Source of the DNA: Chiloscyllium plagiosum
Lineage: Eukaryota
Direction of reading: 5' to 3'
DNA length: 38,908 bases
NCBI RefSeq assembly: GCF_004010195.1
Contig: NC_057718.1
Location: forward strand, 10,093,059 to 10,131,966
The position numbers and the translations under genes were made by a program. The notes beneath the pieces were generated by a model. It was not told the origin of the DNA, searched no databases, and saw only the letters and a program-made list of their open reading frames with translations. Numbering within the stretch: position 1 is the stretch's first letter; the number at the start of each line of letters is the position of its first letter. Shown here piece after piece: positions 15,350-35,307 of the stretch.

Positions 15350-15541
15350 TTACATAATTATATCATAAACTCTTCCGACTCTTCCCAGCCATTCTCGAAC
15401 AGCTTGCCGAACACGGACATCGGTGACGTGGCAGGTGAGTTGGCTGATACTTGGGTATACGGAGGGCTGCAGAGCGGTGAACGTCTGATCCGGCAATTGC
15501 TGAATTTGGTTGAGGACCGTGAGGATCATGTTGGTCCAGGC
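15350..15541 (-). CDS. ARFGEF3: ARFGEF3 (BIG3/KIAA1244) last coding exon
   Basis: Acceptor ctctggtag|GCC. The 192 nt encode AWTNMILTVLNQIQQLPDQTFTALQPSVYPSISQLTCHVTDVRVRQAVREWLGRVGRVYDIIM*, matching the BIG3 C-terminus. Not called in the ORF track because the frame has no qualifying start. Confidence 0.95.
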   Translation of the reverse strand, partial: AWTNMILTVLNQIQQLPDQTFTALQPSVYPSISQLTCHVTDVRVRQAVREWLGRVGRVYDIIM

Positions 15542-23557: not shown

Positions 23558-24779
23558 CTGCATCTGGGCCTCGGTGTCGCGCACAGAGACGCTGTGGGAG
23601 CTGACAGTGGATCCGGAGCGAGGTCGTTTTTCCAGTCGGAGCAGCTCGGGGCCTGCGCTTAGCGAATGCCTCATCTGGCCCTGGTCCAGCAGCTGCTGGG
23701 GCCTCTGGAGAGGGGAATCCGGGCATCTCCCCAATGCCACCTCCCCCTTCTCTACCTTCCCCTCCTTGACTAACGTGGCCAGGTTATGCTGCTGCAGCTG
23801 CTGCTGCTGTTTGCGCTTCTTGTATTCAAAGACGAGCTTGTTGATGGTTTTGTCAGTTGCAATGGTGTAGATCTTGTTGCCAGCGCTCTCCCACCACTCC
23901 TTCTTCCGGCCTTGCTCCTTCTTCTCCATGTTGGGGCTCAAGGGAGCGCTGCTGGGCCCTTTCAGTTTCCCTTCCTCCAGCTCTTTCACGTGGTACCTGG
24001 TGCCATCTTCTGAAGGGGTATCTTTGCCTGACATGCCGCCAGTGGACGGGGTGGATCCTTCGGAGTAGCAGGAGGGCAGAAAGAAGAGGGGGTCACCCCT
24101 CAGCGCTGGGGGCTCCTCTGCCAAGCACTCCAGGTCAAGGTGCATCTGGATGTAGTTGTTACAGAGCTCCAGGCACACCTTGTGCAGTCTCTTCACCAAC
24201 CAGACCCAGTCCACGTTGCTAATCGGCTGAATGCTGAGAGAAGGCACCCTCGCTCGCCACTGCCTCTTCTCCTTTCCCCTCGGTGGGCTGACCTGGGCCG
24301 TCTCCTCAAAGATGTCCTCATCCTCCGAGGAGCACTGCTGGGAAGAATCCGAGCTCAGCTCCTCCTCCTCATACAGGATCTTCTTGACCTGCTCGGCCGT
24401 TATGTTCTCCTGGTTGGTCATAATGGCGGATACCAAAGCCTGGAAGTAAATGTTGAAGCTCATGGCTGACTGGCGGTAGAGGTTGGCAGCCCCTCCCACT
24501 CCCGAGACTTTCATCAGTAGGTACTTCAGGCCAGGCCTCGTGTCGAACTCCCTGGCCGTTCGGTAAGAGTCCAGCAGCAGGTCAAATATGACAGCCAGGT
24601 TCTGCATGGAGATGTACCTCAGGAAGCTGGCCGGCCTGGTCTCTCCAAAGTTAACGGTTCGGTCTGAGGCCTCGCTCGGTGTAGGGCCTTTGACAAACTC
24701 TTCGAGCAGGACGTCATAGAGGTTTTGAAGTAACACTTGATGGGACAGCAAACTCACCACTATTGTCCGGAATGGGATT
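23558..24779 (-). CDS. ARFGEF3: ARFGEF3 penultimate large coding exon (1222 nt)
   Basis: Acceptor ttttgatccacag|A, donor CAG|gtaagt. Encodes IPFRTIVVSLLSHQVLLQNLYDVLLEEF...DIFEETAQVSPPRGKEKRQWRAR...KKEWWESAGNKIYT...RPRSGST...SVRDTEAQMQ. Phases fit the flanking exons. Confidence 0.96.
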
Positions 24780-25874: not shown

Positions 25875-27130
25875 TCTTAATTATAGCAGGGAAAATCCTG
25901 ACCTGCATTCTTCTGAACCTGGTCTGTTCCTGTGGGAGAGGAAATGCTGCCAGTGACCTTCCAGGGGAATTTCCAACATAGTCTTTGCTGTCAATCCAAG
26001 AAAGATGTGAAGAACAACATTTGGAACTGTTCATTATGTTCATCAATGTGACCAAAGCATTTGAGTAAATTACCAGGCTATATGCATTGTTCTAGAGTGA
26101 TTTGAATATCTAAGAAACTTCTTCAAATTCCTGTAACTGCAGCTTGATGGTCGTATTGCAAGTGGGCATTCTGAAACAAATGCTTTCAATATCTGACTGA
26201 TGTCAGGCAAACGTGTGTGATCAGCTCCCTTAATAATTACAGTCAACGTATCAGTGATTATTCACCTCATCAAAGATCAACTATCCTCTGGCGTGACTGT
26301 TAAGTACCACCTTTAGCCTATGTCACCTCCATGCCAATACTAAATTGTCCACTATTGACATACATAATCAACAGCGTACAGGTGACTGCAGTGTCATTAA
26401 CACTTAGTCAAAAAAGTGTGGTGCTGGAAAAGCACAGCAGGTCAAGCAGCACCGAAGGGCTGGAGAATCGACATTTTGGGCATGAGCCCTTCAGATTCCT
26501 GATGAAGGGCTTACGCCTGAAACACGACTCTCCTCCTTGGATACTGCCTGACCTGCTGTGCTTTTCCAGCACCCCACTTTTTTGACTCTGACTCTCCAGC
26601 ATCTGCAGTCCTCACTTTTTCCATTAACACTTTGTACCAAGTTTGTAAAGCCCCTCTCGATCCCTTTAATTGTGCGTCTGAAGTATTTGGTTCAGTCCTT
26701 GGATGTTGCCAAAACAAAACTAATTTTAAACCAGGCCTGGTCACTCAAATAGTCCATCTTCTGCGTATGTTGAAGGAGGGAGTCTGGCATATGTTGAGCT
26801 TTTCCCACACCTTGGTAGCCGCCCGTATCAAAAGGCCATCGGTGATGAGGAGATCCGGCAATGGATGGGTTTTGCCAGCTCGATGTTCTATAGGTTACAG
26901 GTGTGACTTATTTACAACAAGGTCCACCATATACAGCAATATACAGAGCAATATTCAGCACTACAGTCCTGTACTACAGTGAGATCTGGAATATGACAGA
27001 GAGTATTGGAGAAAGTCCGCCAGCAATGTGTACACGGCATTCTCCAGATTCATTAGGACAACTACTAAACAAATGCTAAGGTCCTTCTTGAAGCCAGCTT
27101 CACAAACGTTCTGGCAAAACTGCTGTAAAA
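25875..27130 (+). mobile_element. Highly degenerate RTE-clade LINE RT fragment, split by the palindromic insert at 26406
   Basis: Recognisable remnants IAGKILTCILLN (~25882) and IQERCEEQHLELFIMFINVTKAF (~25994), plus a VRQ.CVI-like motif (~26200). Confidence 0.55.
26406..26621 (+). mobile_element. Palindromic Penelope-derived insert with degenerate hammerhead core and 11-bp TSD
   Basis: Arms 26406-26587. CTGATGA(26499)-aGGGCttacGCCT-GAAAC. TSD cattaacactt at 26395-26405 and 26622-26632. Confidence 0.87.
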
Positions 27131-27810: not shown

Positions 27811-28295
27811 AAGCCAGAACTATACTCTATGACCACACATCAAACATTTATTCCTCTCCACCTCTCCAGGAAAAAAATCTTATTGACGCACAGAGGCCCA
27901 ACCTCCATTTCGTAACTGATTTATTTTCTTTTTAAAATTGTGCACCTTCTACACAAGTTCATTTGGTAAGACCACTCAAACATCCAATTAAATGTCAACT
28001 TGGGTGTGTACCGAAACACATCAAAAATCAGGAGAGGAACAAAATATTATCGAGGTGTGTGGCTTTTAGGTTTTCTAAAATGGTGTCCCTTTGAAATATG
28101 TGTCCCTTTCCCTATCCACCTCGATGTATTTTGTATTGAATACAAAGTGTGTACAAATAGAAGAAATGGAGCAGCCTGAGTGACTAATATAGAAACAAGA
28201 AGCAGGAATTACTCTGTCAGACAACAGCATCACAGCATCATTACTTCAAACTGAAGCAAGATCATGACCCAATGTAATTAAAATAAAATGCTTAC

Positions 28296-28304
28296 CCTAT
28301 TTTT
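28296..28304 (-). CDS. ARFGEF3: Candidate 9-nt alternative microexon of ARFGEF3 (inserts K-I-G)
   Basis: On the - strand: CACTAAC branch point, ~26-nt pyrimidine tract, aTGCttgacgtcgaacAG | AAAAATAGG | GTAAGC. Phase 2-2 and frame-preserving. Confidence 0.72.
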
Positions 28305-30805
28305 CTGTTCGACGTCAAGCATGGGGAGAAAGAAGCAAGAGGAGGAAAGTTAGTGCAGTCTGAACAGGAGGAATATTAAACACCAGCAGAAGGTTAAACA
28401 CTGATTGACATGAGGAAAGATTGAACACAGGATTAAACCCTGGGGATGAGGAGAAGAATGTAATACTGGACACCAGCAGGAAGATCAAATACTAAAGGTT
28501 GGAGAAACAAAATACAAACTGAATAAGGAAAAATGCCTAGCACTTGACACTAAAAGAAGATTAAACACCACTTGATATTGCAAATGCAGAGTGTATGTAA
28601 AAAGAAATCAGTAATCATCCTTTCTAACTTGCACCTTTTCTTGTTTAAATACAGATGAACAATGAAATAATTGAAGGATGTAGCTTAGAATGGATGTTTG
28701 AGACAGGACAGAGAAAGCAGCAATAATAATAATGAATACATAATAATATAAAATTAAATATTACATTAAAATTATCTTATTAAAAAGTGTAATAATACAA
28801 TGTGATATAATTTTAAATTTAATAGAAATCAGGAATTCCCATTTGAATGAAAGATTCATTAGTGGGTTTTGAGAAGATTTGTAGCTCAGGTTGAGGTTCT
28901 GAATGTAGATTTGCTCGCTGAGCTGGAAAGTTTATTATTGTCACATGTACCCAGATACAGCAACAGGTTTTACTTTGCATGCAGTAGAGGCATTTATAAG
29001 GCATTTCATACCTTATAAAGTGCATTAGGGTAATAGTGAGGAATACAATGTTACAGCTGCAGAGAAGGTGCACAGAGATCGAGATCAACATTAAAATTTG
29101 AGAGGTCCATGAGAAATTAGAAGAGTTTAGATGATTATTATGACAATTGTAAAAATACTCTAGTTCATGGCTCATTTTATTAATTTAACTTAAAATTTAG
29201 TTGAAGTAGTTTAATGTTTAAGCTGGAAATTAAAGTGTGAAATTCAGGATAGACATTAGGGCCTGAATTTGCGTTAAGACAGAGAGGATGCCATATGCAG
29301 TCAGAAGGGCCTGAATCCAGATATTCCTGCCCCAAAGACAACCCTCACCATTTTCACAGCAGGGGGAGCAGGAGCAGGTTTGCACTGTAATTAACATGTC
29401 TGTGGTTAAAGGGCATCTTTAAGGTGTCTTCAGTTAGATCCAATTTTTGGTGGTGGGAAGTTCAAATCATGACTAATGAGCTTTCAATGTGTTAGGACAA
29501 GCTATTATCTTGCCAGACTCTCTTTCAGGAAGCAGGAACCCATTTGGAAAATAAGACACCCTTTTGGATATGATCCTGAGACACCTTTGGAACATCTTTG
29601 GGAGAAATCAGGTGTCTTTGAGATTGGTGAAAGTCAGTGTGAATGTGCACAGAAAATGAATAAGAGCATTGGAATTATCAAGGGAACTTCAAGACATTTA
29701 AAACTCCTGCCCTTTGAAGATTTGGGAAAAAAAGTGTCTGCTGGGTTAAAAGAAATAGCTTGTAGTTCCACTCTGTTGATATAAATCTTGTAGGACTAGT
29801 TCTAACTGACTGATTTCATGGCCTATCATTGCAGGGTATCTATCAGTTCAGATTTATTAACACATCCAAGTGCTCATCTAGTCTTTGAAGTGGGACTACA
29901 AGCACAAGTGCTTGTTTTTACCAGGTATTAAACGGAAGTTAAGTGTGGTAAATGGGATTTTATCATTGAACTTAAGAACTTTATTCAATCTCAGCGTGAA
30001 CATGGTGGAGGCCTCTCCTACACAAACCCCGTTTGAAAACAAAATCTCTTCTTTTCACACTTTTTGGACTATAATAGTTTCAAAACAAAAAATCTTATGC
30101 TTCTGATGTATAATTACTATAGGAAATCTACAGGAAAACCTGCAACTCAGGAGCAGCTGCAAGATCCACGCTACTCTCAGTCCACCATCTTTTTTTTATA
30201 AAAGTTATTTTTAAAAATGTTCTAAAATTCTACATTGTTTAACCTAGAAACCATGGGAAATAGGAGTATGATAGGCCCTTTGACTCTGCTATACCATTCA
30301 ATATGTTCATGGCTATAAACCCTTTGATCCCTTTAGTCCTAAGAACGATATCTAACCTTCTTGAATACATTCCAAGATTGTGCTCTAAATGACTTTCTGT
30401 GGCAGGGAATTTTACAGTATCTCTTTACAATCTACATTTTCACTACTTCTTATTTTAAAATTTTACTATTTGTTAACAATTCCTATTTCAATTTAATTCA
30501 GAGATTTTGCTGCTACTGGGTGTCAGAAAATAACACCCTCTGCTTGTGTAAACCAAAAAGATGCTGAAATTACTTTTACTTTCACAGAGGTCTGTGCTTC
30601 TTTCAAGTTAATAAATATTCCAGAACTTGGAATCTTCTGAATTTCAATTGAAATGTTTACCCTTTGCTGCTTTGGTCACTGGAGCAGGATTCAACAATAA
30701 ACTGTAGCTGGGACTGTAGGGAGGAAGATGCATTGGATGAAGATATCATCTAATAGCCTGTCTATCCATCACCTTCACCAATGGGTGTCCAGGGGTTTTT
30801 TTTAC

Positions 30806-30936
30806 CTCTTCTGAGTGTGGCCATTGTGTTTCTCATCCGGTGGGAGTTCGATGATCAACACGCAGGACTGAGCATGCTCAAAACCTTCCCTGTTGCTGGG
30901 GGTTTTGGGTGAACACTGGGTGTCCAGCAGAAAGAC
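30806..30936 (-). CDS. ARFGEF3: ARFGEF3 internal exon (131 nt)
   Basis: Acceptor cttctcctccag|GTC. Encodes VFLLDTQCSPKTPSNREGFEHAQSCVLIIELPPDEKHNGHTQK plus AG, then donor gtaaaa. Confidence 0.93.
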
Positions 30937-32474: not shown

Positions 32475-32606
32475 CTGCTGTGCCATTGCCCGGATTCTCC
32501 AGTACTCTGCCTCTGCGCTGGCAGAATGTGAGGGGGCTGCCACCTTCACCTCGCAAGCATCTCCGCTGAAGCTGTCTGAGCCGCTCTGGAAACAGGCCAG
32601 CAGATT
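32475..32606 (-). CDS. ARFGEF3: ARFGEF3 internal exon (132 nt)
   Basis: Acceptor ccttgcctttcag|AAT. Encodes NLLACFQSGSDSFSGDACEVKVAAPSHSASAEAEYWRIRAMAQQ. Donor CAG|gtattg. Confidence 0.94.
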
Positions 32607-35204: not shown

Positions 35205-35307
35205 CTTCACTGGTTCCAGTGTGACCGTGAAAGCATCTTGTAGGGCGCAACAGGCCAGTCTCCACATTTCATCAGTAAACACAGGGCCAGCTGTGACCAG
35301 GACGTAC
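35205..35307 (-). CDS. ARFGEF3: ARFGEF3 internal exon (103 nt); upstream exons lie beyond the right edge
   Basis: Acceptor ttctgtttcag|G. Encodes YVLVTAGPVFTDEMWRLACCALQDAFTVTLEPVK. Donor AAG|gtaggt. Confidence 0.94.

Follow-up and report, generated by a model that had tools for sequence, protein, structure and literature searches.

A 9-nucleotide (nt) unit on the minus strand of a 38,908-nt stretch of Chiloscyllium plagiosum DNA (NC_057718.1; hereafter the window, whose positions serve as coordinates throughout) is, with high probability, a real, conserved and alternatively spliced microexon of the membrane-traffic gene ARFGEF3 (BIG3), and one that is already annotated. The unit occupies positions 28304-28296, inside an intron of 6,026 nt. 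A first-pass annotation, made from the letters of this stretch, had presented it as a hidden exon that gene predictors would miss. That description fails because the exon is already in public annotation, as documented by RefSeq isoforms X1 (with K-I-G) and X2 (without it) and by dozens of further RefSeq and Ensembl models. The exon itself is already known, being present in RefSeq for apparently the same shark and for many other vertebrates; its discovery value is low, and the finding confirms an annotated exon. The lines of evidence that carry this conclusion are the reading frame across the host intron, a matching pair of shark isoforms, and the recurrence of the same insert at the same junction from a shark to birds and platypus.

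Host gene, splice elements and shark isoforms

By homology, the host gene is ARFGEF3. A 407-residue exon peptide matches brefeldin A-inhibited guanine nucleotide-exchange protein 3 across vertebrates (67 matches in the first homologue search), and a second search, with the window's own stop-to-stop frame as the query, returned 490 matches, the best among the 120 matches listed being Hemiscyllium at 94% identity. The full-length shark protein XP_043551287.1 (P0294; RefSeq isoform X1, 2186 amino acids) carries Pfam matches to DCB (residues 5-169), HDS (1248-1314) and BIG2_C (1740-1851). Given that the further ARFGEF3 exons in Table 1 match this protein exactly, the window spans the 3' third of the gene.

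The host intron, between exons 30936-30806 and 24779-23558, is in phase 2 because the upstream exon ends in AG and the downstream exon opens with a codon-closing A. The last AG of exon 30936-30806 supplies bases 1 and 2 of a split Arg/Ser codon, which base 1 (A) of exon 24779-23558 closes before continuing with IPFRTIVVSLLSHQ... When the microexon is skipped, the junction reads QK-R-IPF, and when it is included, the junction reads QK-R-K-I-G-IPF and stays free of stops. Much of what the first-pass annotation had read at this locus stands: the gene name agrees with those of the homologues, the best of which are BIG3; the phase-2 intron and the stop-free inclusion product were recovered by reading both flanking exons; and the layout of splice motifs is reproduced on the minus strand almost to the base, its outer end of 28356 being one base too many, since CACTAAC ends at 28355.

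In its own form, the unit has the properties of an alternative cassette microexon (3-27 nt): it is 9 nt long, a multiple of three, free of stops, and flanked by AG and GT. The spacer from the A of ATGC through the AG is 18 nt. The sequence back to -57 is free of any other AG, which leaves the AG-exclusion zone intact. As a control for chance, AG-N9-GT units were counted on the minus strand of the 6,026-nt intron. There are 12, of which eight are stop-free in this phase and one has a GTRAG donor; that single unit is 28304-28296, which is also the only one of the 12 that encodes K-[ILV]-G. The 9-nt unit exceeds chance expectation. An Rfam scan of the host intron returned 0 matches, and Tandem Repeats Finder gave no tandem repeats.

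Table 1. Exons of ARFGEF3 and splice elements of the microexon in the window, in the order of transcription
Feature	Position	Strand	Remarks
Further ARFGEF3 exon	35205-35307	-	Exact match to P0294 residues 1591-1625
Further ARFGEF3 exon	32475-32606	-	Exact match to P0294 residues 1626-1670
Upstream ARFGEF3 exon	30806..30936	-	Residues 1671-1713 of P0294; peptide ...GHTQK; 3' end ...CAG AAG AG
Candidate branch point CACTAAC	28349..28355	-	Branch A 28350 = -46 from the microexon; predicted, by motif match only
Pyrimidine tract, 26 nt	28323..28348	-	25 of 26 are pyrimidines, the other a G; set back from the AG, at -44..-19; second TGC inside
ATGC	28319-28322	-	Directly after the pyrimidine tract; TGC = 28319..28321, -17..-15
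3' splice-site AG	28305..28306	-	cAG/A
9-nt microexon AAAAATAGG	28296..28304	-	(AG)A AAA ATA GG(A) = R-K-I-G; adds Lys-Ile-Gly, P0294 residues 1714-1716
5' splice site AGG/GTAAGC	28290..28295	-	GTAAG core
Downstream ARFGEF3 exon, 1,222 nt	23558..24779	-	Starts A ATC CCA TTC (IPFRT...); RNA contigs cover it and splice to 30806
Further ARFGEF3 exon	15353-15541	-	Exact match to P0294 residues 2124-2186 and the stop

The two products predicted from the window correspond to an annotated pair of shark isoforms. P0294 reads QKRKIGIPF at the junction, and removal of K-I-G from it gives XP_043551288.1 (P0296, isoform X2) exactly. Both proteins are identical to the exon peptides of the window (407/407 and 43/43 residues), the Hemiscyllium and C. 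punctatum entries agree with the 407-residue peptide at 402-405 of 407 positions, and the species behind P0294 and P0296 appears, from this identity, to be the same shark as that of the window.

Transcripts were sought in four assembled Logan contig runs (X1, X2, X5 and X8; likeness at least 93), whose RNA nature was guessed and for which the tissue is not recorded. Spliced contigs join 30806 directly to 24779 in runs X1 and X2, which belong to one study, and in run X8, which belongs to another (three runs and two studies). The joint reads CT..AC on the plus strand, that is, GT..AG on the minus strand, contigs of 4,111 and 3,728 nt span both flanking exons, and the skipping mRNA is thereby established. 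The junction search that had been proposed, carried out here on contigs, was thus successful for skipping; the inclusion joint via 28296-28304 was not among the joints listed in the four runs. Assembled contigs drop minor variants and 29 further joints lie beyond those listed, so the missing inclusion joint is no evidence against inclusion. The contigs of run X5 do not cover the exons, and unspliced low-depth pieces across the microexon region (28259-28409 in run X2 and 28327-28491 in run X8) are uninformative.

These contigs also allowed two incidental observations. At exon positions 23660, 23981, 23998 and 24224, the contigs of X1 and X2 (organism A) depart from the window, and those of run X8 (organism C) agree with it there and depart at 24388; organism A is either another individual or a very close relative. 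Within the intron, the summed contig depth of each of the four runs climbs to between thousands and tens of thousands over segments 26261-26762 and 28771-29021, where joints and loose ends are numerous. Both segments have the look of interspersed multicopy repeats with transcription from somewhere in the genome; no Rfam match and no tandem repeats were found in either segment.

Conservation across vertebrates and the therian pattern

The final tally comprised 465 homologues, with the anchor motif present in 427 and missing from 38. At this junction, 58 of the 427 anchored homologues contain R-K-[I/L/V]-G (31 with I, 20 with L and 7 with V), and 369 have no insert; among the 58 insert-bearing homologues, the middle residue is I, L or V only. 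The first search had already yielded QKRKIG-IP[F/Y] in 8 of its 67 homologues, and a teleost query gave K-I-G in 30 of 161 anchored proteins. K-I-G, the form of shark isoform X1, also occurs in teleosts. K-V-G occurs in eel, arowana, bichir (Polypterus), paddlefish (Polyodon) and lungfish (Protopterus), and K-L-G in a frog (Leptobrachium), turtles, crocodilians including the gharial, a lizard (Podarcis), birds (Corvus and Falco) and platypus. The search with the window's own frame gave K-L-G for turtles, the gharial, the lizard, the frog and platypus and K-V-G for eel, arowana and lungfish; the bichir, paddlefish, crow, falcon and Chiloscyllium entries, together with additional turtle and crocodilian ones and three platypus isoforms, were found inside 90% clusters.

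Alternative use of the insert is likewise widespread. Isoform pairs that differ by the three residues only are present in Chiloscyllium, Austrofundulus, Polypterus, Polyodon and Xyrichtys. In two pairs from Podarcis, one more residue changes along with these three, which is what a split codon encoding R on inclusion and S on skipping would give. Both forms also occur in transcript-length Logan contigs from fishes (P0033 and P0164 with K-I-G, P0036 and P0040 without it). The insert is shared by a shark, ray-finned fishes and lobe-finned lineages as far as birds and platypus, which sets the age of the microexon at no less than that of the jawed-vertebrate ancestor. Judged by this distribution, the microexon predates the split between cartilaginous and bony vertebrates, and the jawed-vertebrate age that had been suggested for it agrees with finding the insert at this one junction from shark through to platypus. 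The lamprey model has no insert.

Two further kinds of variation were observed around this junction. Seven homologues (P0005, P0006, P0026, P0041, P0051, P0292 and P0409) lack the first four residues of the large exon and read QK-R-TIVV or KK-R-EIVV, which fits the use, by those species, of an alternative acceptor located 12 nt into that exon. Here the dinucleotide at the inner acceptor position (window 24768-24779, minus strand) is CG and not AG, so the site is unavailable. In Polyodon, isoform X2 (P0361, 2224 amino acids) carries K-V-G yet is one residue shorter than X1 (P0364, 2225 amino acids), X3 being P0360; the protein must therefore vary by one residue at a second place as well, perhaps through an acceptor of the NAGNAG type.

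The distribution within mammals is of particular interest. The insert was found in 0 of 89 therian-type sequences, a set that covers marsupials and many placentals and includes only 15 of the 657 members of the main placental cluster. Therian-type sequences were defined by the junction KK-S-VSFRE or its 12-nt-shorter form; they include P0008-P0012, P0197, P0200, P0286, P0312-P0339 and P0386-P0435, and were compared with P0210, P0380 and P0382. In platypus, three of seven isoforms (X1, X3 and X5) contain the insert. The flanking peptide of therians is altered as well, with VSFRE in place of IPFRT and NNFDHAQSCQ in place of NNKEGFEHAQSCV, the therian version being three residues shorter. This pattern suggests that the microexon was lost in the therian stem lineage. 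A fuller account, in which an ancient neuro-endocrine microexon of the SRRM3/4 type, inherited from the jawed-vertebrate ancestor, disappeared in the therian stem together with the change from IPFRT to VSFRE and the upstream deletion of three residues, can be put forward only tentatively, and we regard it as rather doubtful in its entirety. Should it be correct, the therian loss would explain the gap in human- and mouse-centred microexon catalogues and in the searchable literature, and BIG3 would offer a natural instance in which mammals did away with a conserved microexon.

In the protein, K-I-G (residues 1714-1716 of 2186) is located just N-terminal to the BIG2_C match (1740-1851). A 330-residue segment was folded with an alignment of 33 orthologues, and the resulting model has the insert within a short strand (174-179) that pairs with VLIIEL (156-161) and is directly followed by a confident helix (180-206; predicted local distance difference test score, pLDDT, 81-83). 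With low confidence, the model implies that the insert would lengthen the segment preceding the conserved helix IPFRTIVVSLLSHQVLLQNLYDVLLEEF beside the BIG2_C region; with equally low confidence, the insert may put a hydrophobic residue back at the second position ahead of IPFR. An alignment to P0294 residues 1651-1760 shows IRVPFR, IRVPFR, VRVPFR and IRVPFK in four orthologues from arthropods and spiders (P0061, P0062, P0065 and P0069). Two positions ahead of VPF, their [I/V]-R-VPF[R/K] pattern carries a hydrophobic residue, like K-I-G-IPFR and unlike QK-R-IPFR, and the inclusion form may represent an ancestral-like state.

Acceptor architecture and competing explanations

The acceptor region of the microexon stands apart from the five ordinary ones that ARFGEF3 has in the window. 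Its pyrimidine fraction is 0.50 between -3 and -14, where the five ordinary acceptors have 0.75-0.92; it rises to 0.88 between -15 and -30 (ordinary acceptors, 0.44-0.75) and to 0.93 between -31 and -45 (0.53-0.80). A study of neural microexons locates their pyrimidine peak 15-30 nt upstream and reports a median predicted branch-point distance of 45 nt in human and 47 nt in chick, versus 34 nt (PMC12871342). For SRRM3/4-dependent microexons, a second study reports that 57 of 73 and 51 of 71 have a UGC located between the branch point and the AG, places the relevant UGC between the end of the pyrimidine tract and the AG, and describes a long distance from branch point to AG and a strong 5' splice site (bioRxiv 10.1101/2024.09.17.613571). 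At the ARFGEF3 microexon, a UGC at -17..-15 stands between the pyrimidine tract and the AG, the position given in that study. In addition, the tract is set back, the putative branch point is far from the AG (-46), the 5' splice site is strong as judged by its GTAAG core, and the exon is deeply conserved, from shark to platypus and birds. These cis-features agree with the SRRM3/4 architecture as outlined in both sources, which is a resemblance and no demonstration of regulation. The signature of this type that the first-pass annotation had recognized is accordingly upheld at the level of layout by the pyrimidine profile, the UGC, the branch motif and the donor.

By analogy with such exons, the SRRM3/SRRM4 (eMIC-domain) system would favour inclusion in neurons and/or endocrine cells, a proposal to which we give slightly better than even chances. 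The system would bind the UGC between the set-back pyrimidine tract and the AG, and would help the spliceosome at an early stage of its assembly on an exon that is too small to be recognized by exon definition. Outside such cells, the 6-kb intron would be excised in one piece.

Several observations weigh against parts of this interpretation. The microexon may be real and conserved but controlled by RBFOX, NOVA, PTBP or splice-site competition, possibly with broad, low-level inclusion, and we consider this a serious alternative with a probability somewhat short of even. The skipping form is present in the contigs of three runs. Two of the five ordinary acceptors in the window likewise have a TGC no more than 30 nt from the AG, so that a UGC is frequent by chance and has weak specificity. 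The work on SRRM3/4-dependent microexons describes the UGC as neither universal nor strictly necessary (bioRxiv 10.1101/2024.09.17.613571), and the neural microexon study reports a sizeable share of dynamic brain microexons without it, which makes the motif no clean separator of classes (PMC12871342). Furthermore, arfgef3 was not found in the searchable supplementary tables of three zebrafish microexon studies, PMC12626420 (file 13 excepted), PMC12626424 and PMC13281805, where it could be listed under other identifiers. However, the full layout matches the published SRRM3/4 type and differs from all five ordinary acceptors of the gene. Inspection by eye of the 60 nt on either side of the microexon revealed no GCATG (RBFOX) motif and one YCAY only.

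As for the exon itself, inclusion in this shark is, at the level of sequence, taken from the isoform X1 annotation model and not from observed RNA. In addition, the insert is in none of the listed isoforms of nine other sharks (Hemiscyllium, Rhincodon, Stegostoma, Scyliorhinus, Carcharodon, Cetorhinus, Heterodontus, Mustelus and Pristiophorus), which may reflect annotation depth only. It is nevertheless very improbable that the unit is a chance AG-9nt-GT arrangement and that the isoform models are artefacts spread between species by protein-homology evidence. Although no inclusion contig is among the joints listed, independent sources concur, namely RefSeq, Ensembl/UniProt and the transcript-length Logan contigs P0033 and P0164. 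R, K and G that stay fixed across about 450 million years, with a middle residue that is only I, L or V, require a constrained DNA unit in each genome. The Podarcis pairs display the R/S switch at the codon level that real splicing should produce, and the unit is the sole strong-donor candidate among the 12 AG-N9-GT units of the intron. A different reading of the same exon, in which inclusion is ancestral and gives the structurally complete form, with regulated skipping as the derived condition, so that the removal of K-phi-G is what has to be explained, strikes us as improbable, although less so than an artefact. The four arthropod and spider orthologues, with their hydrophobic residue two positions before VPF[RK], are closer to K-I-G-IPFR than to QK-R-IPFR, and the fold predicts RKIGIP as a strand paired with VLIIEL. 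This argument, however, leans on one aligned residue and a model of low confidence (mean pLDDT 63, and 59 in the block around the insert, segment residues 175-177). The majority of annotated isoforms are without the insert (369/427), the RNA contigs display skipping, and the lamprey model also lacks it.

Significance and relation to known microexons

The ARFGEF3 microexon, read as a conserved cassette exon, is among the more deeply conserved microexons, yet no description of it was found in the searchable literature (arfgef3 combined with microexon, srrm4 or alternative splicing). Its apparent absence from therians, with retention in monotremes, birds, reptiles, a frog and fishes, would hide the exon from studies based on human and mouse, and the possible therian loss is the most interesting loose end of this analysis. 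The lineage pattern provides a way to test the role of a conserved microexon in BIG3, which is linked to secretory-granule biology. On the methodological side, a true 9-nt exon in a 6-kb intron can be found by looking through the raw sequence for the combination of branch point, set-back pyrimidine tract, UGC, short in-frame unit and strong donor.

Among known systems, the closest is the RefSeq X1/X2 pair, which contains the same exon as the window unit, already annotated and with no difference at the protein level. The orthologous K-[I/L/V]-G microexon of other vertebrates shares the junction, the phase, the R-K-phi-G pattern and the alternative use, and differs in the middle residue, which varies by lineage, and in tetrapods, where skipping turns the split codon from R to S. 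Compared with the neural and islet microexons of the SRRM3/SRRM4 (eMIC-domain) system, the ARFGEF3 exon is a candidate member by its cis-features and may be absent from therians. It resembles them in being 9 nt long, frame-preserving and deeply conserved, with a UGC and a set-back pyrimidine tract, and further in its distal branch point (-46), long AG-exclusion zone, strong donor and vesicle-traffic host gene.

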